Assembly (NCBI GenBank): GCA_036630325.1
Contig: CP142728.1
Location: forward strand, 496,001-560,000
DNA length: 64,000 nucleotides
Origin: Vairimorpha necatrix
Lineage: Eukaryota
Reading direction: 5' to 3'
The position numbers were made by a program, and so were the translations under genes. Below are positions 2-52,265 of the stretch, one piece after another. The notes under the pieces are model-generated. The model made no database searches. It was not told where the DNA came from and saw nothing but the letters and a program-made list of their open reading frames with translations. Every line of letters begins with the position of its first letter. Positions within the stretch are counted from its first letter, which is position 1.

Positions 2-1105
2 CCAGATTTAGAAAAAATAAGAAGATATATTGAAAAAAATGTAAGTCAAAGATCAAGTCCTGAGATGCTACATTTAAAGCTACAGGCATGTAAACAAATT
101 AATTTCAGATACATTAAAGAATATTTGTTTGAAATAAAGAATCTAGTAGATCAGTATGCTAGACTAGAAAACTTAACGAGAAAAGAATACGAAAGAAAGT
201 TAAGAGAGAGTTTTTTCTTGGGATTAGGTTTTTCCACTCGTCTTAAGATATTAGAGCTTGGAAAAAATAACGTCGAAGAAACCATGACGTATTTAGAAAC
301 AGTGGAAGAGTGTTTGATTTTTGAAGGAAAAAGGCGTGAAATAACATATGAATCAGTTCATAATGATAGATTCAAGTTTGAGACCGAAAAGGACGGTTAC
401 AAGAACAATAAATGGTGCCGCCTCCATAAAAACAGTACGCACAATACAGAGGATTGCTTTAGACTAAACAATACCTCAGAGCAGCTTAAGAAAAATTTAG
501 AAAACATAAAAATGTCGAATATTGTTCCAGAAAAATTATTTACAATTAGAGAAATAAAGAAAAATAACATACCAGAAGAGGTAGTATTTAATAGAGAAAA
601 TAAAGTCGAGAACATTAAAATAAAAAATCAAGAAGTAACTAATAAAGAAAATTCAAAAGAAGTGAAAACAAAACATGAAACATCGAAAAATGATGAAATA
701 ATAGCGAAAACGCTTAGCCATGAGAAACTACAGAATGTAGTTGGAACAAATATATTAAAAGAGAAGGATTTAATTGTCAAAAGAAATACAGATATTGACA
801 AGAAGCTTAACAATCCGATGAAAAATATAGAAAAAGAAAATAAAAAAGATGATAATAAAAGAAATCGAGGTAATAAATTAATAAAAATAAAATACCGTGA
901 TAAATATAAACAAAAGAAGACATATAAAATAAGAAAGAAAAAAAATGAAATATTAGAAAGTATAAACACGAAGAAAAAGCAAAAAATGTTAAGTAGTGTT
1001 ATAGATAAAGCAATAGTAGACCCGCCGAATATAATATCTAAACATGAAGGGTGGTCAGCAACATGCAACAATGAATGGAGAACTTTAAAAAATTTAAAGC
1101 TTTAG
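2..1105 (+). CDS. Gag-like protein of an LTR retroelement (5'-partial; frame is open back to the window edge)
   Basis: Zinc-knuckle-like WCRLHKNSTHNTEDC. Frame has no stop from nt 2. The stop codon runs directly into a polypurine tract and LTR. No PR/RT/RH/IN motifs. Confidence 0.65.
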   Translation, partial: PDLEKIRRYIEKNVSQRSSPEMLHLKLQACKQINFRYIKEYLFEIKNLVDQYARLENLTRKEYERKLRESFFLGLGFSTRLKILELGKNNVEETMTYLETVEECLIFEGKRREITYESVHNDRFKFETEKDGYKNNKWCRLHKNSTHNTEDCFRLNNTSEQLKKNLENIKMSNIVPEKLFTIREIKKNNIPEEVVFNRENKVENIKIKNQEVTNKENSKEVKTKHETSKNDEIIAKTLSHEKLQNVVGTNILKEKDLIVKRNTDIDKKLNNPMKNIEKENKKDDNKRNRGNKLIKIKYRDKYKQKKTYKIRKKKNEILESINTKKKQKMLSSVIDKAIVDPPNIISKHEGWSATCNNEWRTLKNLKL

Positions 1106-1117
1106 GAGAGGGCAGAA

Positions 1118-1469
1118 TGTGATGTACATTGCTACATCACATGAGCAGATGTCAAATATGTCATCTGTCACCGATGTCCAAAGACATGTCAAGCATTTCA
1201 AGTTACATGTCAAGATGAGTCACACAAACAAACAAACAAACGAAAGTTGCATGGTCGTTACTACATTCGTAAGTACGCCAATGTTTGTAGTTTAGTGTTG
1301 ACAAGAATCTTTAAATTAAAAATAAACTATAAAAGAAAGTCTGTCTGTGAAGGGTATGGAATATATAGAATCCAAGAGAGAGAGACTAAAACCATCAATA
1401 AACATATTTACATTAAAAACTATTTAGAGAGATATTATAAAAATGGCCATGTACCCCGGATACATGACA
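1118..1469 (+). mobile_element. Probable 3' LTR (~352 bp) of the gag-only element
   Basis: Preceded by purine tract GGAGAGGGCAGAA (1105-1117). Starts TGTGATGTA and ends TACATGACA (imperfect terminal IR, TG...CA). Contains TATAAAA and AATAAA. The partner LTR would lie outside the window. Confidence 0.6.
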
Positions 1470-2115
1470 GGTTCTATTGCCGAATACAAATAATTTATTA
1501 TTTTATAAGATATAATAAAAAAGTTTAAACAGGATTGCAGAGTTTTTTAAAAACGAATTAAAAGAAACAAGGAGTGGTGGGATGCATATTGGCATTGAAA
1601 TAATACGGTATGTATAACAAGTTTGCAGTTACAAATATTTGTTTATCTACAGTTACTTGATATAATAAAATCAAAATTTTCAACCAAGTCAAAGTTTTCA
1701 AGAGCTTTTTTGTGGATAAAATTCAAGATATATACATCTTTCATATTGTTTTACTTCAATAGTATTCTATTTTGATTTTCTATGCATGATCAAAGAGGAG
1801 AAGAATGATAATAAAATATGACAATTATAATGCAGTATTTTACCCTCGTAAAAGCTTTAAACGTGTCTGTACTTTTTGTATACTAAAGTTTTATTAATCT
1901 TTGCCTAAAATTGGCGTTTTTAATGTATCAAAAGTAAAGTTTATAAATACGTGTAAAAAAACAACGTATAGATATGCACAAACCTCGGGGTTCATATCTA
2001 ATGACGAATTTTTACATTTTACATATTATTGAAACTAAAACCTAAAAAATAACTTAAAAAAGTCCACTATGTTTAAATTTCTTTAATATCATTTATTAAA
2101 TATATTTTTATTATA

Positions 2116-3153
2116 TTACTTATTGAAATTTTTTCGTAATTTTGATAATAACTCAGAAAATGTATTATTTTTAATATCTAATAACTCAAATATCATTTTA
2201 GTGATCTGCCTTGAACTTTTTTCTTGAAAAAAACTTGCCAATTCCTTCAATTCGCTATATTTCATTTCATAGTTTATCAAAAGCCCATTTCTCATGAGAT
2301 CATCAAAGATATTTCGTAAGATAATTACTATATTTTCATATTTGGGAATGTCAATTAACATTTTTATATCACACCGATCTAAAAACGCAGTATCCAGCTT
2401 CCCATAATTATTTGAAGTAAAGATTATAAAAATTTTTGGATTAGATTTTAACTCATCTAAAAAAATTAAAAAGCAATTTACAACTCTCATACTTTCTAAG
2501 GGTTCATTATGACTTAAAATAATATCTCTAGAAATTAAAATACTCTCAATCTCATCAAATAAAATTAATATAAATTTTTCTTTACTCAAATTAATAAGTT
2601 CTTCTTTTAATTTTTGAAATGAATTTAATGTTCCCCCGTAAAATCTGCTAAAAAATTTGTTACATGATATTTCTATAAAATATGACTTGTTTTTTAGTCG
2701 TATACTAAATCTATTAAATATAGCTTTAGCTAATGTGGTTTTACCTGTGCCCGGGGGACCAAATATTAGAGCAGTTTTATTAATATCAAAGATTGATATA
2801 TTAATCTTCTTTTTATGATATTCTTGAATTTTATAAAAATGTTTAAGAATTCTTAATTTAACTTCTTCGTCTAAAACAAGTTGGTCATATAAATTTCTGA
2901 ACTTAAACGCTGGTAAACTTACCAAGGTAAAAAATTCACATTGCATGACTTCTTTACTAAATTTAAAATATATAAATTTAAACTTAATATTATTTTGATG
3001 ATTAAATATTCCCGAGTAAACAATTTTCTTGGAAGAAATTAGCTCGCAAATTCTTATATTTTTTATTCTTTCTTGTAAATGATGAAAGTTTATCAAAAAA
3101 TCCTCATTTTTATCAAACTTTTTGTCTTGGTTAATTTCTACAACAAGTCGCAT
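2116..3153 (-). CDS. PCH2: Pachytene checkpoint protein 2 / TRIP13-like AAA+ ATPase
   Basis: Walker A GPPGTGKTT, Walker B ILFDEIES, and family-typical segments EISCNKFFSRFYG, EPLESMRVVN, TSN and LDTAFLDRCD. Confidence 0.85.
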   Translation of the reverse strand: MRLVVEINQDKKFDKNEDFLINFHHLQERIKNIRICELISSKKIVYSGIFNHQNNIKFKFIYFKFSKEVMQCEFFTLVSLPAFKFRNLYDQLVLDEEVKLRILKHFYKIQEYHKKKINISIFDINKTALIFGPPGTGKTTLAKAIFNRFSIRLKNKSYFIEISCNKFFSRFYGGTLNSFQKLKEELINLSKEKFILILFDEIESILISRDIILSHNEPLESMRVVNCFLIFLDELKSNPKIFIIFTSNNYGKLDTAFLDRCDIKMLIDIPKYENIVIILRNIFDDLMRNGLLINYEMKYSELKELASFFQEKSSRQITKMIFELLDIKNNTFSELLSKLRKNFNK

Positions 3154-14467: not shown

Positions 14468-14987
14468 GGGGTTGAATCCACATTATTAAATTTATAATGC
14501 CTGAGTTTTTATGATTCAATGAAAAACAAAGAGAAAATTTTATGTAAACTAACAGTTTAAGCTATAACGCAAAAATAAAGCAGAATTTTACTATTTTCTT
14601 TGTTGTTTAAACAAACAAATTGTAGATTTAGAAGATAACTAAAAATTTATATATTTACTGTTATATATTTTGATAATTTTTACCCATCATTATGATAAAT
14701 AATTACATGGGGGCGATACCAAATCGAGAGTCAACAAGTGATGGCTGTGGTCAAGAGGCCCGAATAATGTTACAAGAAATCAAAAGAATAGTTTATAAGC
14801 TAGAGTTGGATGGATAGATGAGTCTATATGGAAGGCAAGAATTTATGAAATGGGTTCGGAAGAAGTAAAGAACTTTATGGTAGAAAGAATTATATAAGAA
14901 GATAATTGGTCCTTAATTATTAAAGAAATAGAAAAGGAGGTTAGAAAGGACGAATTAAAAAAGAAGGAAGAAGAAGACGAAAGTAAG

Positions 14988-16753
14988 ATGATGGAAATAA
15001 TTGCAGAGTCGGTTAGAGGAACAGTTCGAGAGGAGCTGGCAAATAGAGGAGCATTAGGAAAAATAAGGGAAGAAACTACGAGAGTAAGAAGTAGAGATTG
15101 TTTTTACTGTGGTAGATTCGGGTACATGGCAAGAGATTGCTTCGTAAGGAAGAGGAAAGAAGAAGATAATGAAAATAAACATTTTAACAAGTATTTGAGG
15201 GTTCATGAAGAGAGTGGATCTGCAAGCACAGAACTTAGAGCACAAGAATATAGGAAATGCGGAGAAGCAAAACGTAAACTAAATTTAAAAAGGAGAGGAA
15301 TGAGAGAGGATAGAATAGAGGGGGGTCTTGTCATTGAAGATATAAAAGCGAAGTTTAGAGAAATTTTTGACCCACGGCAGGAAGAGATCGTACACTGTAA
15401 GATAGAGAAATGTAAAATTGAGACGCCACCAGGGAAAAAAGTAGTTAAAAGAGGACAAACTATCCCACAGGCGTTGATGGAAAATACTGAAAAATATATA
15501 AAAGGTTTGGAAGAAAGAAAGATTATAAGAAGATCAACATCCGAGTGGAGGAACCCAATTAGAGCTATAGTAAAACCTAACGGAGGAGTAAGGCTTGTAA
15601 GTAATCTAATGAGTTTAAATGACTTAGTTGAAAAAGATCCGTATGAGTTGTCAAATATTAGGGACATCGTTAGAGCCACACAGGGGTCTAAATGGTTTAC
15701 CGTTATAGATCTGAAGGAAGGGTTTTACCACGTAGAGATTGAAGAAGAGGATAAGCACAAAACGGCCTTTGAATTTAACAGAAAGGTATATGAATGGAAT
15801 AGTATGGTAATGGGATATAAAAATTCCCCGCAGATATTACAACGAATAATGAACCAAATATTTGAAGATTTACAAGGAGAAGGGGTGGAGGTATATATGG
15901 ACGACATCGTTATACACGCTAGAACTAAAAGAAGGCATGACAAGCTAGTTATAGAAGCATTGGAAAGATTAAAAAGACATAAAATGAGATTGAATATTGA
16001 GAAGATACAGTTTAGCCAACAGTTAGTTAAGCTCTTAGGAGTCACATTGAATGGTACAGATATTGAAGCGAATGAAATAAAGAAGAACGAGGCGTCGGAA
16101 TTCCCGCAGCCGACAAGTGTAAGTGAAACACGAAGATTCCTAGGAATGACAGGATGGTTTAGGAACTTTATAAAGAATTACGCGGGATTAACTATTCATC
16201 TGACAGATAGCTTGAGAGGTAAAGATAAGAAGTGGGAATGGACGATTGAAATGAATAGAGATTTTTAGAGTTGAAAGAAGTTTTGAGAGCGATGGGGAAA
16301 CTTAGATTGCCTGATTATAGGAAGGAATTTATATTGAGAACGGACGCGAGCAATGTAGGGATAGGAGCCGTATTACTTCGGAAGAACGATAAAGATAAAT
16401 GGGTAGCAATCCAATGGAGTTCAAAAAAGTTAACTCCTACAGAGACCAGATATACTATATCGGAGAAAGAAATGTACGCGGTATTTTGGGGGATAAAAAG
16501 ATTTGAATACGAGTTGCGCGGTAGGAAGTTTAAAATCGAGACGGACCATAAAGCCTTGAATGAGATTAGAAAAAAGCCGTGTTTTAATAACAATAGAATA
16601 AATAGACGGATTGAAAAGATCCAGGAATTTGACTTCACCATAGCATATAAAAAACCAGAGGAAATGGTGGTGGCTGACGCGTTAAGCAGGATACATATGG
16701 AAGACGATGAAAAGAAAAAGAAAATCAGAGAAAGGACCGCCAAGCAGATATAG
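14988..16753 (+). pseudogene. Gag-RT-RNaseH portion of gypsy element 1 (frameshift near 16268)
   Basis: CFYCGRFGYMARDC knuckle; RT motifs IDLKEGFYH, MGYKNSP and YMDD; RNase H motifs LRTDAS, EKEMYA, TDHKAL and ADALSR. Confidence 0.9.
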
Positions 16754-17046
16754 GGTAAATGGAAAGCGCACGTCGATGACGCAGAAGAAAAAAAATATTT
16801 GAGATTTGATTCGGGGCGGAAAGTCGAGATACCACCAGAAGAGTCAAGGGAAAGTATGATGCAGGAATACCACTAAAAAGTTGGACATATATGTATGACA
16901 AGTGTATATTACGCGATGCGGGAAAGATTTTATTGGCCTGGAATAAAGAAAGACATAAATGAGACAATTCGAAAGTGTGTACAATGTCAAATATATAATA
17001 GAAAAAGACTTGGTGGATGTGAGTTTGTAGACACTACACGTTATTT

Positions 17047-18158
17047 GGTGCATCTTTAGTAACGTGCCGGAAGGTAACACCCCCCCTTACAGACAAAAAT
17101 TTAACAAAATTTTGAAAAAAAATAAGAAAACGATATAAAAATGCTTATTTAATTCAGTAGTTTAGATAAAAGATCAACAAAACCCTTATAGAAGTCTCCC
17201 ATATCATCTTCTCGAAGCATAAATTTCCTATACATAAATTCATCGAGCCATGTATCTATCTCCGACCGTTTTACTCCATGTTCTTTGGTCATTTCAGACT
17301 TAAGTTGAGACCATACGTTCTCAATATTATTTGTATGAATACCATCAGGAGATAAAAAACCTATAGAATGATTAACAACTTGATGACTTAGACATAAATT
17401 TTCTGCCACCCCAGGATAACTAGGATGACCATCGCTATGTAAAACCGAACCTACACAAATTCTTCCCTCTAGAGCAGCAGTAAGGCACTCAATGGTTCTA
17501 TTCTCTACCCTCGTAATGTAGAAGTTTGAAGGATTTTGAGCATCTATTATGCCCAAAATCCAAACGGTGTCCCTTATAAAGTCGTCCGAAGAGGTAGGAG
17601 ATCTTATTTTACCCCTTCTGCATATAACAGACTCATCTACTTGAACGACTTGCCCGGGTCCTCCGATTATAATTCTATTCTTTAGCAAATCTTTATAGAT
17701 CTTTCTGAGGCTGCTTTTTACGGCAGAGATTGTAGCTGTTGAAACGCCCAATCTTGCCATCAACTGAAAGTAAGAATATCTGCATAATATTCCAAATACA
17801 AGGTCACAGAATGTATGAAGAGGAACCTTGCAGCCTTTATTCACAACCAACCGCGCACTGCATTTGTAGTTCGAACAGCGATATGCTACTCTTGTAACGA
17901 TTTCTTCCTTGACAGGACCCAATCTCATGTTACATCCACATTTGGAACATGATTTTTGCTCCTTCAGCACTTCTAAGTCAATTAAAGCTTCTAAACAAGT
18001 GTCAACGTTATAAAAAAGCCTTTGTATATTCACAAGTTTAATTTTTGTGCTTTTCTTTAGTAACGTGCCGGAGTTTTCTAAATCGATGTTGTCCATTTTA
18101 GGGGTAAAAAAATATTTTTTAAAAAAACAAAATCCCGGCACGTTACTAAAGATGCACC
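17047..18158 (-). mobile_element. Merlin (IS1595/ISXO2-like) DNA transposon, apparently intact, nested in the gypsy integrase
   Basis: Perfect 24-bp TIR GGTGCATCTTTAGTAACGTGCCGG. 8-bp TSD CGTTATTT (17039-17046, 18159-18166). Removing the insertion restores integrase TTRYL-EKVALDL. Confidence 0.95.
17149..18096 (-). CDS. Merlin transposase (315 aa)
   Basis: ATG follows CCCCTAAA. Zn-ribbon CSKC...CSNYKC; GGPGQVVQVDES, WILG, LHSDGHPSY, VNHS and HTNNIENVWSQLK. Confidence 0.92.
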   Translation of the reverse strand: MDNIDLENSGTLLKKSTKIKLVNIQRLFYNVDTCLEALIDLEVLKEQKSCSKCGCNMRLGPVKEEIVTRVAYRCSNYKCSARLVVNKGCKVPLHTFCDLVFGILCRYSYFQLMARLGVSTATISAVKSSLRKIYKDLLKNRIIIGGPGQVVQVDESVICRRGKIRSPTSSDDFIRDTVWILGIIDAQNPSNFYITRVENRTIECLTAALEGRICVGSVLHSDGHPSYPGVAENLCLSHQVVNHSIGFLSPDGIHTNNIENVWSQLKSEMTKEHGVKRSEIDTWLDEFMYRKFMLREDDMGDFYKGFVDLLSKLLN

Positions 18159-18166
18159 CGTTATTT

Positions 18167-18881
18167 AGAAAAGGTTGCTTTGGATCTCATTGATTTTAGA
18201 GACGCAGGTAAATATGTATTGGTTGCGATAGATTATTTCACTCGAAGAGTATGGGGCACGGTAATGGAGAACAAAACTGGAATGAATGTGACAGAATTTT
18301 TAAGTAAGTTGTGTGAACAAGGAAAAAAGCCCGAAGAGATTATAACGGATAATGGGCGAGAATTTTATAATGAGGGGTTTAGAGAGTTGTGCAACAGACT
18401 AGAAATTAAACATAGGAAAGTAAGTGTCGAATCGCACAGGAGTAATGGCAGAGCTGAGAGGGTTATAGGTACGCTGCGAGAGAGCATTCTGAAGACCTAA
18501 GAAGGTACATTTGCAGAGAAGGTCATGGGAAGCATTGAAAAATATAATATGAGTTATTACACGGCACTAAAATGTACACCAATAGAAGCGACAGAGGATA
18601 AAACTGGACATGTAATGATTGAAAATAGCCCACAGGGGAAATATGGAAAACTGTTTAACGAGGGGAAACGGTAAAAATTTAAAGTAGGTGAGTACGTGAG
18701 AGTAGCTAAGAAGGAAAACTTGAAAGGTGCGGATAAATATTTGAAAGGTAGGTTTTTAGAGAGTGGGAAAGTTATAGAGAGATGTGGCAATGATTCTTAT
18801 ATAGTTAAGTTAGTAAATGGAAGATATATAAAGAAAAGGCACTATAATCTAAAAAGTCTGCTTGGGTTAAGGATAAAGTGA
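18167..18881 (+). pseudogene. Integrase core and C-terminus of gypsy element 1
   Basis: LDLID, IITDNGREF, SNGRAER; internal stops; homologous to 50892-51896. Confidence 0.88.
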
Positions 18882-20071
18882 CTAACCGTCTTGGAGGGGG
18901 GATGTTATATATTTTGATAATTTTTACCCATCATTATGATAAATAAATACATTTACTATACATCCATCATAGAGCCTCTGGCTAATTATTGTTTCCTTTA
19001 AATATAATCTTTTTGTAAATAATTATCATTCCTTCCAAACGTTTGGTCGCAAAATATAATTATTATTTTTGTTTTTAGACTTTGGGATTATCATATTTAC
19101 TCGTTGTATGCTACTGTACCGCTGTGTTTTATAATATTTATGTTTTTATATCGTATTTCAAACGGATTTGTGCCTTCGTCGTAAATTTTTACTTAATATT
19201 AATGAATTAGTTTGACTCATTCAGCCATCAGATTTTTCTTTAGAACATTCCCAAAAAAAGAAGACTTCTATTGTTGTGGTTGCTAAATGCAAAAGAATTA
19301 GTTACAAAAAAAAAGTGTTCATTACATGAGACATTTAATTATATTGTTGATTTTTTTTCGTTTTACTCAAATTAATATAAAACATAATATTTTGTAGAAA
19401 GCTACTCGATTAACAGTAGTTTTCATATTTCGATTTGGTTTATGCAATTCGTCTAAAAGTAATTTTCCATAAAAATGTGTATCTGCGGGGGAAAATATAT
19501 TTGTAATATACTAAATTTTACTAATTTCTTTTCCTATTTATAAATTAATTTTATTTCTTCAAATAAAAGGTTTACATGTAAATAAGTGTTTAAATTTTAA
19601 TATTTAATAATCAAATTTTTAGAAATGTTTTACCTTTGTCGATTCTTGAAAACAATATTTCGTCTTGCTGCGGTTCCATATTAGAGATTGCACGATCTGT
19701 GAACATATTCGTTGCTTAAATGTTGTTTATAATCAAGATTTTTAAGTCATCTTAATCATTTTAAAATGGATATATTTACACAATTCATTATGTATTCTAT
19801 CATATATATATTGTCTAGGGGTTGTTACTTCACAATATAACTTTACCTGTATATAATCACCCTTGTCTTGTCTTTACAAATTATAAACGACATTAGAAAA
19901 TATATATCATAAGAAAAAAAAATTTAAGAAATAATTTAACTAAAAACTATTAAAGAATCTGCTAAAGATGTATATTTTGTTTAAATAATCGTCGTCTAAA
20001 ATATTATTAAGTGATAAATTTTTTTCTAAACTATTTTATAATCTGTATATAAAAAACTAAAGAAAACTTTA

Positions 20072-27293: not shown

Positions 27294-29262
27294 TTTGTGC
27301 AATAATATTTTTAATAAACTGGATTTATTATATTTTTTTTTAAATCAATAGTGTAAAAAAAAACTTACGGATTTATTTTATACTCAGAAAAAACAAAATT
27401 TTGTTTTATAGTTAGTTTAATAGTTGTTTGTTTTAAAAAGAATTACGATATTAGTCCATTTAAATTATCTCGAGGAAATTAGTAAAAACATAGTAAGTTA
27501 TTTAGTCTAATCTATTTCAGACTCATAAAGGTATATCTTGCTAATCGTACACTTTATGCGTACATTTGCATTAAACCCAATTTTTAGATTTATTATTATT
27601 GCAATATATTATTTGATCTCATTTATGTTCAAAAATTATGAATTTAAAGCTGTACGTGGTCATTAATACCAGGAAATTTACAAAAATTTACTATATAAGA
27701 AATTTTTAAGTTGATATTATTACCTAGTTTATTTAGCACTTTATCTAATATTCATTCGACTAAGTTTACAGCAAAAAAGACACAAGTATTCATAACATAT
27801 CATTAGACTTAATGTTTCTGTGCTATAAGCCTATATATAAACGACAAATTGACTTATATTGTTTGTTAAAAATATAAAAATCGTAAAATGACATATTCAT
27901 ACAGTCCTCTATAAATGATAAAGTAATATATAAAATTATCTATAAATATAATGAAAATGTTTGAAGTATGTATAATGCTTTGAAACGAAATTGAGAGTTG
28001 GATTAAGAATGATACTTAAGCACATAGAGAAGTTATGATGAACTGTGGAAATTTAATAAATTAAAACGAGAACCTTAAATACCATAAGACTTAAAATTAT
28101 TGATACATAACTGACCTTATTTGAATAAAAAGTTTCGGCACACCAATAAGCTTTTTTTTTGAAACTATTCTTCTTATAAGATAGACATGAAATTTTTAAT
28201 GTTTTGCTATAAATATATAGAAAAGTCGATGATCATATAAAAACTCGGAAATTTAATGTGTAAAACACTTTTTGATATGTCAATAATGTGATTTTTGAAT
28301 TTCAATGTATCTTTTTGTATCAAAAAAGAGACCAAAGAAAATATCTACGTGTCTGGTGGCTTCGGTACTAATTTTAAAATCTTGATGTTAAGATTATATT
28401 TTAGTTTCCCGTAGACCTAATTAGCACAAATGCTAAAAACGAATGATAATCTAGAAACATGGGATTTTTCAAACGAGTATTGCAGAGGAAATATGTGGTT
28501 CTGTTTTTAATTTGCATTTATTTATACAAAACATGTAGCTCGATTCAATCATACCTAGTAATTGAACGAAAACACTAACCGTCTTTTCGTTTCTTTAAAT
28601 TGCCCAGTAACGCGTTACGGTTATTGGCAAGCCGAGGAACTCTAATTTTAATCATATGTCCACAACCTAAAATATAAAGTTTTCATTGAAATTTTAAACA
28701 AAAAATACACCCGAAAATCTATATATGAGAGCCGAAAAGGAGAGATTAGAGCATTTTTCTTTAGCAATTAATACGAAATCAATTTGTCAATGTTTTTATT
28801 TAAATCAATATAATGGTATATGAGTTATTAGGAGAATGAAAAATCCATTTAGTCCCTTACTAGTATAAATACAATAAATTTTTAATTTAGCTTTGTTTAA
28901 TGATTCGAGGCGGAAAAAATGCGGAGGAGCAAAAAACAAAAAATAGAGTCAAATTTAATAGCACATTTACTAAATATAAATATACAATTTTAGTCTTTTT
29001 TTGAATTTTTAAATTTCTTTTTTTACTTATTTAATCAAAACATATCTTTTAATACATTCCAATGCATAAAAGATGAGTCTTGATCATCTTTATATAAGCA
29101 ATATTTTTTAAGTAAATTACATTGTTATAGACGGTATTGAGGAAGAAAAAACAACATTTAAATAGATAATATTTTTCTTCACAAAAGAGAATAGACATAT
29201 CTTATAAAATGGATATAAAGTATGATGGAAAATCTTAAAGCGGCATATACATTCCAAATTTC

Positions 29263-30275
29263 GGCTAAAGTGAGCATTAGCTACAAAAAATCGATATAGG
29301 GTTTTTTTGTTTTTTTTTGCCCCTTTTTTTTAAAAATGGAAGAAAGAAAATGATGAGGAAGGAACAAAAATAAAAACTAGAATTAATATTTTAATAAAGC
29401 TTCAAACACTGAAGTTGTGGAGTTTATTTGGATCATATATCTAAATAAATAAAGTTTAGTGCTATTCGATGATCTGTTTCTATTTGGTATAGAATGGTTT
29501 TGAGATAACCAATTGCCTTCTATGGTATTGGTATGTACTCCTGTATTCGAATCTCTAAATGTAATGTATGATTAACCATATGATGTTGGTTAAATATTGT
29601 ATTTAAAGAATAATACGCTCTCCACATATCGCTATATATAATACTGCTTCTACTTACATATTTTAAAAGAAGTTCAGTAAGTGTTCTTTTGTCTCTTTTC
29701 TTGATATATACTACTATGATTCTACGTTGGATGGTATGTTCAACCATTCCAAAACACCAAAATCCTTTTACTAACTTCCCCCTATTGTATTTATTCTTCC
29801 CAATCTTAGTCTCATCAATTTCCACTATAGTATTATCGCCTCCATTAGTCCCTATACTAGATAAATACTTATCATAAAGACTCATTTCTTTTAACTTTTT
29901 TAGCACGGAAGATATTGAAGGTTTAGTACAACCTAAGACTTGAGAAATGGACTTACGTGTATAACCTAGAATCCATAAATTTAGTATTTGTAATATTTTG
30001 ATGTGATTTAGCCTAGAATCCTGAAATAAAGTTTCATTCCAAATTGAAATTGTGTTTTTACATGAGCTTAATGGACACCTTATGAGACTTCTTTGCTTCA
30101 TTTTTTTTGATTACAGACGCTACATTTTTTATTTTTTTTCTTAATTATTAGATCATTATATATGATCTCCAATTCTTCTCTTGTCCGAATTCTTTCTTCC
30201 ATTTTTAAAAAAAAGGGGCAAAAAAAAACAAAAAAACCCTATATCGATTTTTTGTAGCTAATGCTTACTTTAGCC
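29263..30275 (-). mobile_element. Merlin DNA transposon 2 with ~85-bp TIRs
   Basis: TIR begins GGCTAAAGT(G/A)AGCATTAGCTACAAAAAATCGATATAGGG. 8-bp TSD CAAATTTC (29255-29262, 30276-30283). Confidence 0.93.
29383..30202 (-). pseudogene. Merlin transposase with two frameshifts
   Basis: MEERIRTREE...CSVC, then VEIDETK, KYNRG, WCFGMVE, IYSDMWRAY, VNH, and GVHTNTIEGNW in another frame. Confidence 0.85.
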
Positions 30276-30581
30276 CAAATTTCTTATTCGCTTAAAAATG
30301 AAGATAAACTAAAAAAGACCAAATAATATACATATCACAAATAGTGTATACGAGGCCTAAAATATATTTTAAAAAACACAAAACAAATGAAAACATGTCT
30401 AATATAATAAAGTATATCTATAGTAATAAAAGAATAAAAAATAAAACAGATTTTTACAAATATAGACTTCCATTAAACACATCTTTTATGGTTTATACAA
30501 TTTTAAATTAGTTTTATTGTTATGTTTATATATCCATAAAGCAAATTTTATCTTTATTAGACCAATTTTTCATTTTGTAAA

Positions 30582-31205
30582 GGTACATGACCGTTTGGAA
30601 CCCGCTTTGGGAAAATAACCCCGCTTTGAAATTTTAAAGGACCCCCTTTAAAAAATTGGCAAAAACATTTTTTGTTGAAGCAGATGAGGTTTTTAGTAAT
30701 GAAATGTATTTATACATGGAATATAAAGAAAAGTTTATTTTGAAAACATTTAATGCTGAATCGGCGTGCGCCTTGCTCGTTTCTGTAACTAGTAGAAATA
30801 CTGCTTTTTCCTTGAGGCAATACAAGAAAATGTATAACCTGTTTCTATTATGATCTCTAATCAATGGGTAGCATATGATGCCACATTAGCTAAGCAAAGC
30901 GATGGAGCACAGTACTAAGAATCACTCCATAAATGCTGTAACCTCTAGCGATTCTACGTCACAATACCATATAATTTAGTTGGTTTGGGCTCATTTCTAT
31001 AAGAGATATTCGATCTAGATACAAACAAAGAAGAACACTATGAGTACCTTTTATAGTTCCACTGAGCTTTTCAAATTCCCAAAAATCACCGGATAAGTTG
31101 TCTTCTGTCATTATTAAAAATAAATCATCAAATCCCTTTTTTATAATTTTTTTTAATTTTCCCTTTTTTGAATTTTTCAAAGCGGGTTCAAAACGGTCAT
31201 GTACC
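30582..31205 (+). mobile_element. Non-autonomous Merlin-type element, copy 1 (624 bp)
   Basis: TIR GGTACATGACCGTTT(G/T)GAACCCGCTTTG. 8-bp TSD TTTGTAAA/TATGTAAA (1 mismatch). Highly similar to 62073-62723. Confidence 0.85.
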
Positions 31206-32346
31206 TATGTAAATTTTTGTTTGTTTTTTTTGCGCTCTGTACGCTTCGATTTCGAAACAGATATAAAATAAAAAATTCAATATTTATGATATTAAGGAAG
31301 CTAAAGTAGAAATTAGCCTTAGCATTTACTAAATGTTGCTCTTTATGCATTATTTATGTTTTAAAATCGTTCTAAAACGAGACTTTTTTGCTATTTTGTT
31401 TCTAACGATTAAAGTCATAATTAAAAAAATGAGTTTTCGTGACAATAATAAAAATGCAAAGTTTTATATTTTACATGTTGATGTTTTGAAAGACAAATGT
31501 TTAACAATGACAAACATAAAATATTAAATCCCAACTTTAAAATTTATGCGTTCAAAGAAATATGTGATTTATCAATATTTTCAATCAAGTTTTAACTTGA
31601 ACACGTGCTTTGATAAAAAAGTATATCAGAATATTTTGTTTTGTCGCTTTGCACCATTAATATTATGTGCAAAGAATAAATAAATATTTTATTGAACTTT
31701 CCGTAGTCCTCTATAAATTGTTTTACATATCATATATATAAAAGAATTTTATTTAATTTTTTACCCCTAAAACTCAAAAAAAGAGAAAATTTAAAATGGT
31801 AAAATTTTTGTTTTAAAACAAAATTAAATGCTTTCACTGTATTTTATAGACAATTTTAGACCAGATACGTTATTTACATTTTATTTATAAATCATTTTTG
31901 AAATGCTTAGAAATATGATTTTCTCCTTTTTAATTTCTTCCTTTTAGAGAATGAAAACAAAAACAATATGAAACAAAATGTAGAAAAAATTTGTTACTAA
32001 TGTGTGAAATTAACTCAATTGGATTAAAATTTGTTACTGAATTAACGTTACCACTGCTATGTTGATTCAATAATAATACTTAACTTCTAAAAATCACATT
32101 TGCTCCTTTTTAATTCTTCCTACCAGAAATGGAAAATCAAAAATCAAAAATCAAAACAAGAAACAAACATTAAAAGGATGATTTACAAACATTAGAAATT
32201 TATCAACTGACTTAAAAACTCAATTAATTAATATTTAGACTAATATCAATGCTATTTATTAAAAAATCATAGTCTCATTTTTGTTTTCTTCTTTCCCAAA
32301 ATGGAATTTCAAAAACTATAAATACTTTTTTTTTTTTACCCCCATT

Positions 32347-35300
32347 ATGTTTACGAAAAATCAAACAAATTGCGATTTTAGTGAACAACCAAAAGCAACT
32401 ATCACTATCTCTCAGGAGATAAGTTATAATACAGAAAATGACAATGTTATTTTCTATGGGGCCAATGCCTCTGTACATAACACAAAAAATAAAAAAACAA
32501 ATGTCGGAGAAACAAAAAAAAGGAATTTTATATTCAGTTTCTCTGGCGAAAACAAAATACCATCCAACCCAACAAACAACACAGAAAAAACAGCTAGATT
32601 AACTGATAACACAAATATGGAAACTTTGACGGAGATTCTAGATATAGCTTGCAGAATCAGTACTAGAAACCATGCCGAACATTATTGTGGAGATCTCAAA
32701 GAAGAATGTGGCTTTTGTGGTGCATTACATTTTGCAGGAGAAGCAAGCAGTAATGGATTATACAAAAGCTGCTGTCATTTTGGGAAAGTTAAATTACAAA
32801 GAACAAGAGACTTCCCAGATGACATTAAGAATTTATTTATTGGGAAAGACAAAAACGCAAAGAACTTTAAAGAAAATATTAGATCCTACAATGCTGCTCT
32901 TTCTTTTGCTTCTCTTGGTGCTCAAATAGAAACTGTATTCAATGGACCATATGTATTCAAAATACATGGACAAGTGTATCATAACACTTATAATATAAAT
33001 AATATGGAATCTAATACACCAAAGAAATATGCCCAATTATATGTAGTGGATAGTGATATGGCAAACTCCCAAAGAATGCAAAATCCATCTAATAGAAATT
33101 GTGATATTAATATCATGAGCAAATTAGATGGATTTATAAGATCAGCCAATCCATATTCCAATGCGTATAAAAATATGTCTGAAATAATAAAGGAGCAAAA
33201 GGAAATGGGGAAAGAAGTTAAAGACATTTCTATGGTCTTTAATAAAAATTTAGAAAGAGATCAGAGAAGGTATAATGCTCCCTCTACAAGTGAAATCGCA
33301 ATGATTTTCACTGATCCAAATGGAGAACCCCCATTTGAGAGGGACATTAAAGTATATAGCAAGGGTTTTAATTCTGATAATTTACACTTGGATATTGTAA
33401 GTCCCCATCTAGATCCAATGACATATACTCTCTTCTATCCACATGGGGAAGCTGGATGGAATGCAAATTTGAGGCTAAAGTCTTATCTAGGAGAGGCACA
33501 GAAGATATCTTTGTTACAATACAAAGTAGCACAGATATCCATAAGAAAAGATAGTTTCAACCCTTTGCTTTATGGAGGAAAGTTGTTTCAACAATGGATT
33601 GTAGATTCATATCTACAAGTAGAAGCAAATAATTTAAACTTCATAAAATTAAATCAAAAGAAGTTGAGGGTAGATCTTTACAAAGGTTTGGTAGATTATG
33701 TAAATAATGGGTCAGAAAGTTCTGCCAAGCCCGTGATCTTACCATCAAGTTTTCAAGGATCTCCAAGAAATATGAGAGAGAGATACCATGATGCAATGTC
33801 AATTGTAAGAAATTTCGGCAAGCCCGATCTTTTTATAACTATGACTTGCAATCCCAAATGGAAGGAGATTAATGAGAATCTATTTGAGGGACAGACAGCA
33901 GTTGATAGACCAGATTTGGTAGCAAAGGTCTTTAACTTAAAGTTGAAAAGTATGATGGAAGAGATTTTGGCAGGAAGAGTGTTTGGGGAAGTCGTGGCTC
34001 ATCTCTATTCTATTGAGTTTCAAAAACGTGGACTTCCTCATGCACATATATTGATAATGTTAAAGGACAAGATTCGGGATGAAAATATGATAGATAAGTT
34101 TGTAAGTGCAGAAATACCATCGCCCATGGAAAATGAAGTGTTACACACCTGTGTAACAAAACATATGATTCATGGACCATGTGGACTAAGTAACTTGACA
34201 AGTCCATGTATGGAAAATGGTCTCTGCACTAAGGAATATCCTAAGGAACATAATACTGAAACAAGGATCAATAAAGACGGATATCCTGAGTACAGACGAT
34301 CTAGAGGGGCCGAGTACAATGTAAGGGGCAACATTGTTACTAATGCTAACGTGGTCCCTTATAATGCTTATCTTCTTGAAAAATACAATTGTCATATCAA
34401 TGTAGAAGTTTGTACTTCTATCAAGTCAGTAAAGTATATTTTTAAGTATATTTACAAGGGATTTGATTGTGCTGAAATGAGAATAACTGACAACAATGAA
34501 ATTGATCATTTTGTGAATTCCAGATATGTCTCAGCACCAGAGGCTACCTGGAGATTAATGGAATACAAGATGCATGGAAGATCTCATAAGATCCATAGAC
34601 TTCCTGTGCATCTTCCACAAGAACAATTGATCACTTTCGAAGAAGGCAGAGAAGAGGAAGCCGTTAGATTGTCCGATCTTAGACAGACTCCTCTTTTAGC
34701 CTACTTCAAATTGAATGAAGTTGATGAAGGAGCACATCGATTTTCGTATAGTGAGATACCCTATCACTATACATATAAAAGGGGAGAATGGATTAGGAGA
34801 AAGAATAAGTATAGTAAGATAATTACTAGACTTTATTCTGTATCTCCAATAGAGAAGGAAAGATTTAGCCTCAGAGTTCTATTGATCAATGTAAAGGGGG
34901 TTAAGTCATATGAGGATTTGAGAACTGTAAATGGTGTAGTTTACAGTTCTTTCGCAGAGGCGGTGGAAGAAAGAGGACTTCTTCAAGATGATAAAGAATG
35001 GGAAAGGGCTTTGGATGAGGCTGTATCAACCGAGTCCCCATCAATAATAAGAGCATTGTTTGGATATATTTGTGCTTTCAATAAGCCTAAAAATACCAAA
35101 GAACTCTTTGAGAAGTATCTTGGAGATATGTCTGAAGATCTAGATCAGAATAGTAGAGACGAAATATTAAGTAGATTAAAAGATATAGTTAATGCTCATG
35201 GATGGAGCTTAAATGCTCTGGGTTTAGATGAGCCGATTAACTATATCAAGAATGAAAGAGCCGTCTTTGATAATGAACAAGATCTAGATCAGATGATATC

Positions 35301-37903: not shown

Positions 37904-38667
37904 TCAATAAATAAATTAAAATAATGTGGTTTTTTTCTGACAAACATTATTAGTCCTAAAATGATTTTTATACTAAATTTTATGAGGTGTGTGCGAGATA
38001 ATACGAATAAATACATAGTGAGTAATAATAATGAGATCAAAATAATAATTACCTATAATAACTCCTTCTCTAGCCAAAGTACAACAAAGTCTTGTGATAA
38101 ACATATTGAAAATATTCGACATACTAGAATTTCTTGTGATGCTATAGAATGATGCATTAAAATGAAATTTAAGGTAGAAAACAATACACAAAATATCCAA
38201 CTTATAATTTATGAGATAAAAAAGTATATATCCGCATGTGGAAATATAAGTTTGCAATTTATTGTCGTGATATCACTAAAATCAATTACAAAAAGTAAAT
38301 TGGTCAAATATATGAACAAAGACAAAAAATTGATGTACACATTACTAAATAACATATCCGAATAACACGAATAAAATGCACAAACCTATAATACTTATCT
38401 AAACAAAGGTCGACAAGAATAAAAGCAAAATTGAAGATTAAAAAGCATACAACGAGCTTTAGGACGTTTTTTTTTGATTTTAAAGAGCATTTTCGGCCTT
38501 TTCTATCGATTTATGAATCGAAAAAAATTTTTACTAATGAAAAAAATAGAAATTATAATATAAATGTAAATATTTTCTATGTTCAAGTATATATCAATTT
38601 TAGAGACATTGGGAAACCCCCGCTTTGCGTTATATAATCTTAAGTATATATTTATTGTGGCGCGCGA

Positions 38668-38977
38668 GCGTTGACCCCTAGGATTTCCAGCTTGTGCAAG
38701 CATTAAGCATTGATCCTCAATGAAACTTCATCCCGTGCAAGCATTGACCCCTAGTAAATGCAACACCGTGCAGGCGTTGGCCCTCAAGATTTACAACCCG
38801 TGCAGGCGTTGACCCCTAGGATTTACAACCCGTGCAGGCGTTAACCCCTAGGATTTGCATCCCGTGCAGGCGTTGACCCCTAGGATTTACAACCCGTGCA
38901 GGCGTTGTCCCCTAGGATTTACAACCCGTGCAGGCGTTGTCCCCTAGGATTCACAACACGTGCAGGCGTTGACCCCT
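38668..38977. repeat. Subterminal tandem array, ~10 x 32 bp
   Basis: Consensus GCGTTGACCCCTAGGATTTACAACCCGTGCAG; the first unit overlaps the left TIR. Confidence 0.92.
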
Positions 38978-39180
38978 CCTTTTGGAAAGCCCAGTCTAAG
39001 TTAAATCTTTTTTAAATAAATAAACGCACTTGTTTGGATTCAAACCTACGGACCATGTGAAAGAATCAAGCAAGCATACCACTCGACCATGGCATACTAG
39101 ATAAAACGAAATAAAAAATAAGAAAATACTTACATAATGACAATTGATAAATAAAAAGATTTTTTTTTATCCCCTTAAAA

Positions 39181-40479
39181 ATGATTCTTCCTCCCAGAAA
39201 TGCTAGTGAATACAGTAATTTAAAATTAGTTTTACTAGGCAGGGACAATGAAGTTGTTTTAGAAAAGCAACAAAAAAAACGGTTGAAACAAAAAGCTGGT
39301 AATTACCTTCTTATAGATGGGGCGCTATATTTAAGGGACGAGGCTAATGGGAACCACCTCAAGGTTTTTCATAGTGACCAGCTTGAGGCCATGGAAGTGG
39401 AATGTAGAGCTTTCCACCAGTTTCATCACAGGGGCGTTAACCTATTCGAAGCATCATGCAATAAGGTTTTTTTTAAAATTCCTAGGGACATTATAAGAAA
39501 AATCGTTTCCGAATGCATCACATGTGGACAATCACAACCGTTAAAAAATAAAGAGCGCCAAGTACATATTACGGCCTCTAAACCGATGGAACGAATTATG
39601 ATCGATTTAATAGATATTACACGCTATAAAAGGTTTAACGATGGGTATTGTTGGATTTTAACAATAATAGATGTGTATTCTAAGTTTGCCTGGGCCTTTC
39701 CATTGAAAAGTAAAACAGGTGATGAGGTTACAAAAAACCTTAAATTTTTATTTTACAATATGACTGGTCCGCCCAAGATCCTTCAAAGCGATAATGGAAA
39801 GTAATTCTGCAATTCCTATATAAAAACTTTTGTTCCGACCTTTTTATTGTTCGAAAACATAGTAGGCCCCGTCACCCACAATCAAACGGGCAAATAGAAA
39901 GGTTTAACCAAACTTTAACGCGAACAATACAAAAACATGTATTTGAAGAAAGCTTGTTAGCCGTTGACCATGCTAAAACCGAAGAAGAAAAGGAATGGCT
40001 TAAACATCTAGATAAAGTAGTTTACAACTACAATTTGGCCAAACATAGTGCGACAAAGCAGGTCCCGTTTAGTTTATTCTTAAAAATACCAGGATTTAAT
40101 TCTGTTTATACGCAAGATGAGATTGAGTCTATAGATGATAGCTTAAAAGAAATTGAAATGATACTCGAGACAAAAAATAAAAGAGATTTGTCGAATAGTG
40201 TTTTTAATGAGCAAACTGAAACTGGTTCAGTTGATCCAAATTACCTTGCAAGAATGGATCGTCATTCATTAGTTCATATCAAAATATACTTTTGAAATTG
40301 GTGACAAAGTCATTGTAGCTAAAGACTTTGATAATAATATCAAAACAAAAAAACTAAAATTATCTTCATTTTTTTCTAAAGAAGTTAAGATTATAGAAAT
40401 TCTCTCAAACAACAGAGTGAAATGTGAAACTGAAGAAGGAACTCAAATTTTCCCTATGTCGAGGCTTAAAAAACTTTAA
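39181..40479 (+). pseudogene. Ginger-like integrase/transposase, disrupted
   Basis: Starts CCCCTTAAAAATG. HHCC motif (H...HRG...CITC), MIDLID, IIDVYSKF, LQSDNGK*F (TAA in place of E) and RPRHPQSNGQIERFNQT. Frameshifts near 39830 and 40290. Confidence 0.88.
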
Positions 40480-48827: not shown

Positions 48828-49360
48828 TTTTTCATCCTTCGTTTCATTTTATTTTAAAGTTTATAATTGCCAATGATTAATCTTTATCGCAATTTTGTTA
48901 AAGGCAATTGTTTATCTATAGAAATTGAAATTTGTTCTAATATTTTATTCCAGCAATGTAGTTGTTCAAATAAATTCTTAGATAATATTTTATATGCACA
49001 AACAAACATTGGTTTTAACAAAATTAGTTAAATATTTGGATATAAATTTTAACTTTATGTCTTCGTTGTAAAAAATTGCATTTTTTTTGTAGACATTACA
49101 ACACTAGTTCAGTCCAGCAATCGTGTAAGCTGAAAACGCCGTCTCGATATTTGTATTCAAACGAAAATTCATCCAAAAGGCCGTAGAAGTATGAAGCTTA
49201 GGAATTTAGTATTAGACGTGGAATGCTTTTATTCTTCGTAAGTTTGGTTTAGTCGCTTTAAAATTGATATCCAATTCTTTTTTGTTGAATGTTTTTGATG
49301 TTGTTATTTTATCAACGCACTTAAATTTCATTTCCATGAATTCTTTTGAATTTAATATTA

Positions 49361-51977
49361 TGTTATATTCTGTAATATGATTGACCCCAATTTATGATAA
49401 ATAAAGACATGGCGAACACAAGAAACAAAAAGTCAGCAAGTGAGGACTGTGGTCAGGTGATCAGAATGATATGGAATGAGTTTAGTATTATTATGTATGG
49501 ATTGAGAGAACAGGAAGGGATTGAATTGAAAGATATTTATAGTTTGGGTTCAGAGGATCTGAGAAATGTAAGATAAAAACACAAGAGGGTGCTAAAGTAG
49601 TGAAGAAAGGACAGTGCATACCTCAAGCATTAATGGAGGATACTGAAAATTTTATTAAAGGACTGGAAAAGAGGAAGGTAATAAGAAGGTCGAATTCTAA
49701 ATGGAGAAATCCAATAAGAGCGTTATGAAAGCCAGATGGCGGAATAAGGCTAGTGAGTAATTTGATGGCCTTGAATGATTTGGTTAAAAAAGATTTTTAT
49801 GAGTTAGTTAATATAAGAGACATAATTAAGAAAACACAGGGTTCAGAATATTTTACGGTAATTGACTTAAAGGAAGGATTTTAAAGTATTGAGATCGACG
49901 AGGCAGATGAACATAAAACTGCATTTAAATTTAATAGAAGGGTTTATGAATGGAATAGTATGGTTATGGGATACAAGAATTCCCCGCAGATTTTACAAAG
50001 AATAATAAATAAATTGTTTGAGAGACACTTGGGAAAAGGAATAGAAGTGTATATGGATGATATTGTTATACATGCAGCGACGAGAGGGAAGCACGATATA
50101 TTGTTAGGAGAAGCACTTAGGAAGTTGGAAGATAATAAGATGAGGATTAATATTAATAAGGTACAGTTATGCTTGAAGGAGGTAAAGCTATTTGGGGTTA
50201 CACTGAATGATTTAGAGATAACACCGTCTGAAATAAAACAAAACGAAGCGTTAGAATTCCCAGAGCCACAAAACGTGTCAGAAGTAAGGAGATTTTTAGG
50301 ATTAACAGGATGTTATAGAAGCTTTATAAAAAATTATGCGAATTTAACGGTACATTTGACCGACAGTTTGAAGGGTAAGAACGAATGGAAATGGACAGAA
50401 AATATGAAAGTTGAATTGTTAAGTTGAAAAGAAAGAGTACAGACAATGGGAAAGTTGAAGATAGTTAATTATGAAAAGGAGTTTTTATTGAGAACAGATG
50501 CGTCAGACATAGGAACGGGCGCGGTATTAATGCAAAAGAATGACGAAGAATAGTGGGTGCCGGTACATTGGGCTTTGTAAAAGTTTACTCCCACGGAATC
50601 AAGATACGGAATAAGCGAGAAAGAGATGTATGCGGTCTACTGGGGAATCAAAAAGTTCGAATATGAATTAAAAGGTCGTAAATTTAAAGTTGAAACAGAC
50701 CATAAAGCTTTGATAGAAATCAGGAGAAAGCCACGATTCGATATAATAGGATTAATAGGTGGATAGAAAAGATTTAAGAGTTCGATTTTTACAATTGAGT
50801 ACATGAAGCTAGATATAATGGTAGTGGCCGATGCGTTAAGTAGAGCGCCTGTTGAAGAGACTGAGAAAGAGGAAATATAAAGAAAAGAACAGTGAAACAA
50901 ATTGAAGGAAAAGAGAAGAAACATACAGTATATGAAGATGGAAAGGAATACTGGGTCTTTGATAGTGGTATAAGAGCAGAGATACCAAAGGAGGAAAATA
51001 GGGCAAAGTTAATAATGGAATATCACGAAAATGGAGGTCATCGTAGTGTTGGAAGTGTTTATTATGCGATGAAGAAGCTTTACTATTGGTTAGGGATGAA
51101 GTCAGAGATTTATAATGAGTTATTGAAGTGTGAAAGATGCCAAATTTATGATAGGAAGAAGTCGGGCGGATGTGATTTTATTAGTACCAGTAGATATTTA
51201 GAGAAAGTAGCTTTTGATTTGATTGAATTTCGCGACGAATGTAGGTACGTTTTGATTGGTGTTGATTACCATACTAGACTGATTTGGGGAATGAGCATGA
51301 AGGAAAAAAAGTCTCAGAATGTTGCTTGGTTTATAGAAAGTTTATGTAGGAACGGAAACCGACCAGAGGAAATAATAACCGATATTGGCAAGGAATTTGT
51401 TAACGAGGATCTTAGAATATTATGTAGAAGATTAGATATTGCTCACAGGAAGATAAGCATAGAAAGCCACCGTAGTAATGGACGTGTAGAGAGAGTAATA
51501 GGAACATTGAGAGAAGCTATTTTGAAAATCAAAGGCGATGATTTTGACGATAAGGTTATGAGAGCGATTGATTTGTATAAAAATAGTTATCACAGTGGGA
51601 TAGATTGTACACCTAAAGAGGCAATTATAGATACTAGTGGAAAAGTTATGATAGAAAATGATCCTGAAGGAAGATACAGTAAGAAGTTTGTTAAATGGAA
51701 GAGAGAAAGGTTTTACGGGAATCAGCAAGTACGAGTAGCGAAAAAAGAAAATTTGAAGGGATGTACTAAATATGAAAAAGGACGATTTCTGGAGAGGGGG
51801 AAAATTTACGCGATTTGTGGAGGAGATTCTTATATTGTACGATTGGAAACAGGACGGCTGGTGAAGAAAAGACATTATGATTTAAAGGGGGGTTGAGTAA
51901 GTATGAGATTAACCGTCTTGGAGGGGGATGTTATATTTTGTGATATGATTGGCCCCAATTTATGATAAATAAAGACA
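49361..51977 (+). mobile_element. Ty3/gypsy LTR retrotransposon 2 with 49-bp LTRs (gag internally deleted, degenerate)
   Basis: LTRs 49361-49409 and 51929-51977 (3 mismatches). TSD TATTA. PBS-like TGGCG. PPT GGAGGGGGA. YMDD, LRTDAS and integrase SNGRVER. Several stops. Confidence 0.93.
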
Positions 51978-52265
51978 TATTATGTTTTTTGTGACGATTG
52001 AAATAGAAGCGTATCAATATAATTATGTTTAAGCTTTGATTGAATATTTTTAATTGCAAACAAAGGCTTATGTGCTTAAGAAAAACAGTTAATTTTGTAA
52101 TTGCCTTATAATCAATGTATTTGTATGATCTTACCTTTCGCTTTTAGATCCCGTTATTATTTACCTTATTTAGTCCCATTGAAAATAAGGTTTCTACTTT
52201 ACATGAAATGTCTTAAAGAATATCTTGGCTTATTGATAAAACAGGTATAAACATATAGCGCATGA

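Follow-up and report, generated by a model that had tools for sequence, protein, structure and literature searches.

We report that two retrotransposons, here called E1 and E2, in a 64,000-nucleotide (nt) stretch of the Vairimorpha necatrix genome (contig CP142728.1, positions 496,001 to 560,000 of the forward strand; hereafter the window) belong, as decayed copies, to an old lineage of microsporidian elements that is gypsy by descent and has shrunk to approximately 3.1 kb. We show that this lineage lacks a protease and has one open reading frame (ORF) of approximately 1000 amino acids (aa), which codes for a small Gag ("mini-Gag"), a zinc knuckle, reverse transcriptase (RT), RNase H and integrase. 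The sequence data lean, by a modest degree, towards a 3.1-kb protease-less gypsy lineage that combines tiny long terminal repeats (LTRs) and a host-type promoter with a route to Gag through an internal poly(A) site. A fuller picture, in which the lineage is widespread and has 38-49-bp LTRs without U5, no protease, a partial capsid, a Gag:Pol ratio set at the internal poly(A) site through a Gag stop codon written by the poly(A) tail, and a fusion protein that stays uncut, is put forward tentatively.

Each element is flanked by LTRs of exactly 49 bp and by 5-bp target-site duplications (TSDs; TTTAC and TATTA), as had been proposed from the letters alone (the sequence-only reading), together with the TG...CA borders, the TGG and the polypurine tract (PPT) that we find in both (Table 1). 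Specifically, all four LTRs start with TG and end with CA, TGG follows the 5' LTRs and a purine tract precedes the 3' LTRs, and the similarity ends at these LTR borders, beyond which single matched bases are due to chance. Since the probability of an identical pair of random 5-mers in the window is 0.0026, the two TSDs are not chance matches. The ATG inside each 5' LTR (14692 and 49394) does open homologous frames that run through the primer binding site (PBS), and the single mismatch between the E1 LTRs (base 45, T/A) does fall within the AATAAA hexamer, as claimed; the E2 LTRs differ by three transitions (bases 10, 14 and 24). E1 and E2 are only 65-70% identical and therefore represent separate subfamilies.

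Both are dead copies. E1, which is approximately 3.17 kb long without the Merlin transposon inserted into it, carries stops and frameshifts in addition to this insertion, and its mini-Gag is interrupted near 14815-14870 by both a stop and a frameshift. E2 has lost approximately 500-550 bp of gag, corresponding to residues 61-227 of its relative P0001, and small indels set it apart from other copies across 49561..51896. A V. necatrix protein, P0071, shares 99.8% identity with E1 across 445 residues and likewise begins at this LTR ATG, which places the host in this species or very near to it. No solo LTR was present in the 64-kb window. The missing protease, the shortened Gag, the internal poly(A)-like signal, the Merlin insertion, the stops and frameshifts of E1, the gag deletion of E2 and the three E2 LTR transitions had not been part of the sequence-only reading.

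With the longest E1 ORF as query, 59 matches were obtained, 34 of which form a discrete group (E ≤ 2e-79; next match 6e-45) with full-length members of approximately 1000-1050 aa; those that carry a species name are from V. necatrix, V. apis, Nosema granulosis, Enteropsectra breve and Pseudoloma neurophilia. On an RT tree, which like the tree of protease-bearing relatives described below is a quick tree, a long branch sets all 57 rows of the group apart (support, SH-like approximate likelihood-ratio test, SH-aLRT, 100). The relatives carry intact ORFs of approximately 1000 aa in which the catalytic residues of RT, RNase H and integrase are conserved, and 14 of the 34 begin with M-x(2-6)-[YHDN]-M-[AG], in which the first Met is the LTR ATG and the second is formed from the LTR-end CA and the TGG of the PBS. 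The order RT-RNase H-integrase and a gypsy-type RT are both present, and the RT fold matches that of Ty3 RT (4ol8, E 1e-32). Membership in Ty3/gypsy, as first proposed, consequently holds by descent but not by the textbook definition, since there is no protease. Neither is the set of features that of TRIM or SMART elements: these are non-coding, with LTRs of 85 bp in SMART according to PMC3281118, whereas the relatives of E1 and E2 code for a full ORF and the LTRs of the family are about half as long. Among viral contigs there were no relatives, only weak integrase matches in 19 loci.

The near-minimal LTR suggested for E1 and E2 is indeed a family trait. Single LTRs seen in DNA measure 49 bp in L003 (3') and L037 (5'), 47 bp in L006 (5') and 46 bp in L045 (3'), the last two belonging to one family, and approximately 38 bp in L004 (3', border inferred); these loci are metagenome contigs or eukaryote-type contigs inside bacterial metagenome-assembled genomes (MAGs), and their host is assumed. 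Moreover, Table S1 of Parisot et al. 2014 (PMC4202319) lists an Anncaliia algerae element, retro L, as complete with an LTR of 50 bp, an ORF at 32-3049 and a length of 3127 bp, and places it in Group 1 beside Nosema bombycis Nbr5. By eye, retro L resembles E1 and E2 in having a 49-bp TG..CA LTR at both ends, CCC-ATG, the in-frame CA/TGG junction and the same motif ahead of the PPT, and it resembles E1 in having the knuckle, AATAAA followed by 12 nt and TAT, and then RT directly; it differs in that its hexamer occupies bases 20-25, upstream of CCC, rather than 40-45. The features that mark out retro L (an LTR of approximately 50 bp, an ORF that starts inside it and a length of approximately 3.1 kb) recur in the E1/E2 family, and judged on these features E1 and E2 are of the same type. 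Nbr5 probably belongs to the protease-less clade as well. Retro S, for which a 45-bp LTR is listed, was not counted; its consensus repeats approximately 80 nt. As to the ATG inside the LTR, it is real but ordinary for microsporidian gypsy elements: the ORF starts within the LTR in 43 of the 50 complete A. algerae families in that table (counted by eye).

It had been recognized beforehand that the 49-bp repeats could be what deletions had left of longer LTRs. Most other microsporidian gypsy LTRs on record are 105-272 bp, and E1 and E2 are both decayed. However, TG..CA, TSDs, PBS and PPT are in place at both ends, retro L, L003 and L037 likewise measure 49 bp, with 46-47 bp at both ends of L006/L045, and in one run (X2) a contig was found that joins the E2 LTR from a different flank with an identical border. 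Because the lengths recur across the family and this contig shares the border, we consider such an origin very improbable. The two bacteria-labelled MAGs G001 and G002 (L004-L006, L028-L061) contain numerous eukaryote-type gypsy contigs (50 and 16 matches, respectively) and are for this reason regarded as contaminated, probably by a microsporidian.

The absence of a protease was evaluated using a profile hidden Markov model built from outgroup matches, which exceeded 10 bits for 12 of the 13 controls held out and for none of 61 clade proteins, a set that includes fragments. Likewise, no aspartic protease family was among the 25 listed of 55 Pfam families for 30 clade members, and the Pfam protease was found in 8 of the 9 protease-bearing relatives scanned. 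The knuckle and RT are separated by a charged linker of 49-188 aa (median 77.5), which is too short for a protease and is disordered in the AlphaFold model (residues 144-200, predicted local distance difference test, pLDDT, <50). The clade nests among protease-bearing relatives (support 97 for a group of 46 rows and 99 for the 27 core rows of the clade, in a tree that took in 28 of the 55 clade rows), and protease loss is therefore derived; the 28 protease-less rows have a support of only 34, since the tree does not resolve how P0073 and the protease-bearing P0150 branch at their base. P0073 is a basal relative with a longer Gag, seemingly without protease and knuckle, and may be an intermediate or represent a separate loss.

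Compact protease-bearing elements (L030, L040, L060, L056 and L036, with LTRs of 58, 75, 75, 69 and approximately 172 bp, respectively, and also P0130-P0150) are like E1 and E2 in their CCC and in-frame CA/TGG, and many have the N-K-x4-Y motif discussed below; they differ by the protease (8/9) and by a longer Gag with similarity to Retrotrans_gag (3/9). Since L030 and L040 are short at both ends, short LTRs are not tied to the loss of the protease. In the clade, a CCHC knuckle is present in 21 of 30 members, and in the full-length ones it is preceded by approximately 100-180 aa that comprise a small helical domain and a coiled coil (mini-Gag model, pLDDT 91). The clade probably retains only the front of a capsid, the remainder having been lost. 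The Atlas neighbours of mini-Gag are Gag families (0.85-0.87), which we take as a lead only. The best VIA matches (Z 6.3) were generic helical bundles, the Protein Data Bank sequence search gave nothing under E 0.6, and comparison with 16 outgroup Gag regions gave no match.

The evidence for an internal poly(A) site comes from the region just behind the knuckle. There, at a distance of 2-18 residues, N-K-x4-Y is found in 18 of 43 knuckle-bearing clade proteins; 18 of the 27 proteins with NK at that place have it compared to 5 of 145 NK elsewhere, and it is absent from 37 unrelated gypsy proteins. The N-to-Y spacing is fixed in a linker that is otherwise unalignable, among proteins 40-61% identical to P0001, and the four residues in between show no constraint. 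Where copies of the motif were seen in DNA (for retro L by eye), N-K is coded AATAAA, as against approximately 0.42 per NK expected from codon use, and in L037, at equal spacing, I-K is coded ATTAAA, a radical change of residue that keeps the signal. A hexamer followed by 12 nt and an in-frame TA occurs at 6 of 8 hexamers at the end of Gag and at 5 of 73 elsewhere in DNA; two of the six are the discovery cases (E1 and L002) and two come from one locus. The idea of a tail-made stop had been set down before L037 and the protease-bearing relatives were examined. In the latter, NK 17 residues before the catalytic Asp is accompanied by Tyr 11 before it in 6 of 6 cases, compared to 0 of 16 without NK; of four informative rows outside this pattern, assessed by eye, three show NK and Tyr and one neither.

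We propose that polyadenylation at the in-frame AATAAA/ATTAAA just past the knuckle probably provides the excess of Gag. Cleavage at UA 13-14 nt downstream would turn the Tyr codon into UAA and give a Gag-only protein, with a predicted size of approximately 150-190 aa (8 proteins measured), and read-through would give the genomic RNA and a Gag-RT-RNase H-integrase fusion that may work largely uncut. This Gag route, which would already operate in protease-bearing relatives, may have made the protease dispensable.

N-K-x4-Y might instead be a Gag/Pol cleavage site at which the polyprotein is cut by the protease of a co-resident gypsy element or of the host. The protease-bearing relatives share species and contig sets with the clade, the motif sits in a disordered, exposed linker, and in some relatives it lies approximately 30 residues ahead of the catalytic Asp, where the cut between nucleocapsid and protease is expected. 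In nine protease-bearing proteins, however, the Tyr 11 residues before the catalytic Asp is within the protease strands, so that cutting there would destroy the enzyme, and a protease site is less likely for that reason; the free choice of the middle residues, the change of N to I in L037 with the hexamer kept, and the codon usage of N-K also speak against it. We find such help from another protease rather unlikely. The motif could also be left over from the N-terminus of the protease or result from an AT-rich composition, in lineages that make a single polyprotein and need no excess Gag. Its absence from over half of the clade and its overlap with the start of the protease in relatives fit this; the fixed spacing at a variable distance from the knuckle and the low background (the 5/145 and 0/37 above) do not, and we consider it distinctly unlikely.

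Turning to the LTR itself, CCC starts at base 25 (25-27/28), ATG is at 34 and AATAAA at 40-45 in E1 and E2. The elements of the proposed order AT tract-CCC-ATG-AATAAA are all there, with CCC lying 5-6 nt upstream of ATG rather than next to it; the hexamer is found 4 nt from the LTR end but is absent from the E1 5' LTR. Each of the 7 LTR families seen has a hexamer (shuffle P of 0.03-0.13 for every one tested), downstream of CCC in E1, E2 and L004 and upstream of it in retro L, L003, L006/L045 and L037, and the order is consequently not a family constant. Microsporidian promoters are described in PMC2803860 as a CCC-like motif plus AAATTT-like/AT motifs with 5' untranslated regions (UTRs) of <7 nt, in agreement with the claim that transcripts start near CCC and ATG, and within the window CCC lies ≤15 nt from the start in 9 of 15 ORFs checked and AATAAA/ATTAAA near the end in 9 of 13. 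The LTR may amount to hardly more than a core promoter of the host type (AT tract and CCC), with transcription predicted to start approximately 1-6 nt ahead of the ATG at base 34.

Priming by a tRNA at TGG would then give a strong-stop DNA of approximately 17-22 nt, close to the 15-25 nt with almost no U5 suggested before, where the U3, R and U5 borders are read from the sequence. As the E1/E2 hexamer is 4 nt from the LTR end and the cut would follow 13-20 nt later, the RNA is predicted to end in host DNA, approximately 10 nt beyond the element; the whole strong-stop would therefore be R, and U5 would be absent. In relatives with the upstream hexamer, leaky read-through may supply equal homology; otherwise R would be less than approximately 10 nt. 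According to PMC2803860, recognition of AAUAAA is leaky and the signal is usually approximately 20 nt before the cut. According to the sequence-only reading, the 49 bp would accommodate the promoter, the start codon and the poly(A) site together, R being short and U5 a few bases long. That every LTR family seen has a hexamer agrees with this, as does a hexamer at bases 15-25, which would put cleavage inside the LTR and leave a U5 of approximately 10-15 nt. Yet the hexamer of E1 and E2 is too near the LTR end for cleavage within it at the usual distance, and an upstream hexamer leaves the very short R noted above; we regard this compressed arrangement as unlikely.

The PBS classes vary among E1, E2, L030, L036, L037, L040, L058, L006 and L056 (TGGGGGCG, TGGCGAAC, TGGCGAC, TGGTGGAGA and TGGCA), which suggests that several primer tRNAs are used; TGGGGGCG presumably resembles a tRNA-Pro site and TGGTGGAGA a tRNA-Ala site. 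The E1 and E2 PBSs did not match the two tRNA-Met-like heads predicted by ARAGORN within the window. Self-priming of the Tf1 type was rejected, the complementarity between PBS and LTR being merely 3-5 nt by eye. A 12-nt motif adjoining the PPT (18880-18891 and 51907-51918) is conserved across subfamilies, in L003, L004, L045 and retro L. It does not form a stable hairpin (z 0.55 to -1.7, four copies folded), nor a 5'-3' duplex, for which pairing was no better than in shuffles (44 and 237 of 300).

Several observations weigh against the proposed lineage and its Gag route. First, 25 of the 43 knuckle-bearing proteins have no N-K-x4-Y, among them a whole subclade, P0001, L004 and L006, and with 73 hexamers elsewhere in ORFs the hexamer alone cannot define the site. 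Second, the rows are related and the discovery set includes E1 and L002, so that P values overstate the support, and the distance of 13-14 nt from signal to cut is an assumption. Third, transcript starts, ends and tails are inferred, and the 5' UTRs of E. aedis are long (PMC2474625), i.e. a start near ATG is not universal in microsporidia. Fourth, the helical-domain profile matched the front part of the relatives' Gag in only 1 of 21 cases (17.2 bits, HHalign probability 17%), and the mini-Gag model gave no Foldseek match at E ≤ 0.001 and no match to a capsid fold. Finally, V. necatrix has protease-bearing gypsy families of its own (P0144 and P0147), and cutting in trans is therefore possible.

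Among known systems, Ty1 also has the gag start inside the LTR and the PBS in coding sequence, and yeast Ty3 and Ty1 differ from E1 and E2 in having LTRs of approximately 340 bp, a protease, a full capsid and a Gag:Pol ratio set by frameshifting. The LTRs of Bombyx Mag are 77 bp. The eight N. bombycis elements Nbr1-8 are single-ORF Ty3/gypsy elements, "nearly all" of them described with Gag, protease, RT, RNase H and integrase (PMC2474625). A Gag-only subgenomic RNA generated by early termination is reported for the plant Ty1/copia element EVD; unlike the route proposed here, it requires alternative splicing, and the protease is retained (PMC5580714). In Blastocystis, UAA stops of nuclear mRNAs are completed by the poly(A) tail, although there host genes are concerned (PMC4159000). 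The open-access literature yielded no gypsy element that combines a Gag-only RNA with a tail-made stop, and no paper on microsporidian elements that deals with short LTRs, protease loss or a Gag stop completed by the tail, Repbase being outside the search. As far as their content was covered, PMC13174016, PMC7313128 and PMC3614468 add nothing on these three subjects, and a term search of the main text of PMC4202319 matched neither "protease" nor "retro L" and brought up no comment on LTRs being short. The short LTR is thus in print already, as a row in the 2014 table (PMC4202319), and for the missing protease, the cut-down Gag and the candidate tail-made stop no description was found in the open-access literature, the Nbr5 paper and Repbase not included.

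The window contains several other mobile elements (Table 1). A tRNA-derived short interspersed element (SINE) of approximately 790 bp is present in three copies; two copies are 95% and 76% identical to the first, and two have A tails, target duplications of 14-15 bp and heads identified as tRNA-Met by ARAGORN. Two Merlin (PF12762) transposons are present, one of them nested in E1. A 39-nt sequence is repeated around an apparently intact Helitron. Moreover, there is an integrase-only (rve) element, which we take to be Ginger/TDD-like, and an element resembling miniature inverted-repeat transposable elements (MITE-like) in two copies with shared terminal inverted repeats (TIRs). One host gene was identified as a homologue of the meiotic checkpoint ATPase Pch2/TRIP13.

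Table 1. Positions of E1, E2 and other features in the window
Feature	Position	Strand	Remarks
E1 5' TSD	14654..14658	+	TTTAC
E1 5' LTR	14659..14707	+	49 bp; AT tract, AATTTTT-A-CCC (CCC 14683-14685), ATG 14692, hexamer mutated
E1 PBS-like sequence	14708..14720	+	TGGGGGCG..., within ORF; LTR-end CA + TGG give a second in-frame ATG
E1 mini-Gag	14692..15194	+	Small helical domain, coiled coil, zinc knuckle 15099-15140; from sequence and family models
E1 candidate internal poly(A) site	15174..15194	+	In-frame AATAAA (N-K), 12 nt, TAT (Y); a tail would give a UAA stop
E1 RT and RNase H	15399..16750	+	Directly behind charged linker, no protease; frameshift near 16262
E1 integrase	16751..18881	+	HHCC, core, C-terminal beta domain; stops; interrupted by Merlin
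Merlin (IS1595-like) DNA transposon inside E1	17047..18158	-	TIRs, 8-bp TSD CGTTATTT; ORF 17149-18096; PF12762, E 1.9e-12
E1 conserved 3' motif and PPT	18880..18902	+	GAC-TAACC-GTCT
E1 3' LTR	18903..18951	+	49 bp; AATAAA 18942-18947
E1 3' TSD	18952..18956	+	TTTAC
E2 5' TSD	49356..49360	+	TATTA
E2 5' LTR	49361..49409	+	49 bp; CCCC 49385-49388, ATG 49394, AATAAA 49400-49405
E2 PBS-like sequence	49410..49422	+	TGGCGAAC..., within ORF
E2 gag start	49394..49564	+	Remaining gag, knuckle and internal hexamer deleted
E2 RT, RNase H, integrase	49561..51896	+	Stops and frameshifts
E2 conserved 3' motif and PPT	51907..51928	+	
E2 3' LTR	51929..51977	+	49 bp; AATAAA 51968-51973
E2 3' TSD	51978..51982	+	TATTA
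SINE, first copy	52266-~53055	+	
SINE	13113-12321	-	
SINE	43772-44532	+	
Second Merlin	29256-30282		93-bp TIRs
Helitron Rep-helicase ORF	32347-36651		1434 aa, CCC promoter
39-nt repeats around Helitron	31730, 36861, 37383		
Integrase-only (rve) element	38646-40586		TIRs, 32-bp tandem array at left end, broken ORF
MITE-like element, ~650 bp	30574-31213, 62070-62726		
Pch2/TRIP13 homologue	2116-3153	-	E 3e-36

The short LTR by itself is modest news, having stood unremarked in a 2014 supplement. LTR finders whose default minimum LTR length is near 100 bp would miss short-LTR families, and microsporidian transposable element counts are therefore probably biased. The lineage would mark a natural lower bound for an LTR retrotransposon, with a strong-stop of approximately 20 nt and an LTR that hardly exceeds a core promoter, in the absence of a protease and probably with only half of a capsid. 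How elements with a single ORF make an excess of Gag is a standing question, to which a stop codon made by the poly(A) tail would be a new answer. If true, this would constitute a new expression strategy in what is perhaps the smallest self-sufficient LTR element.

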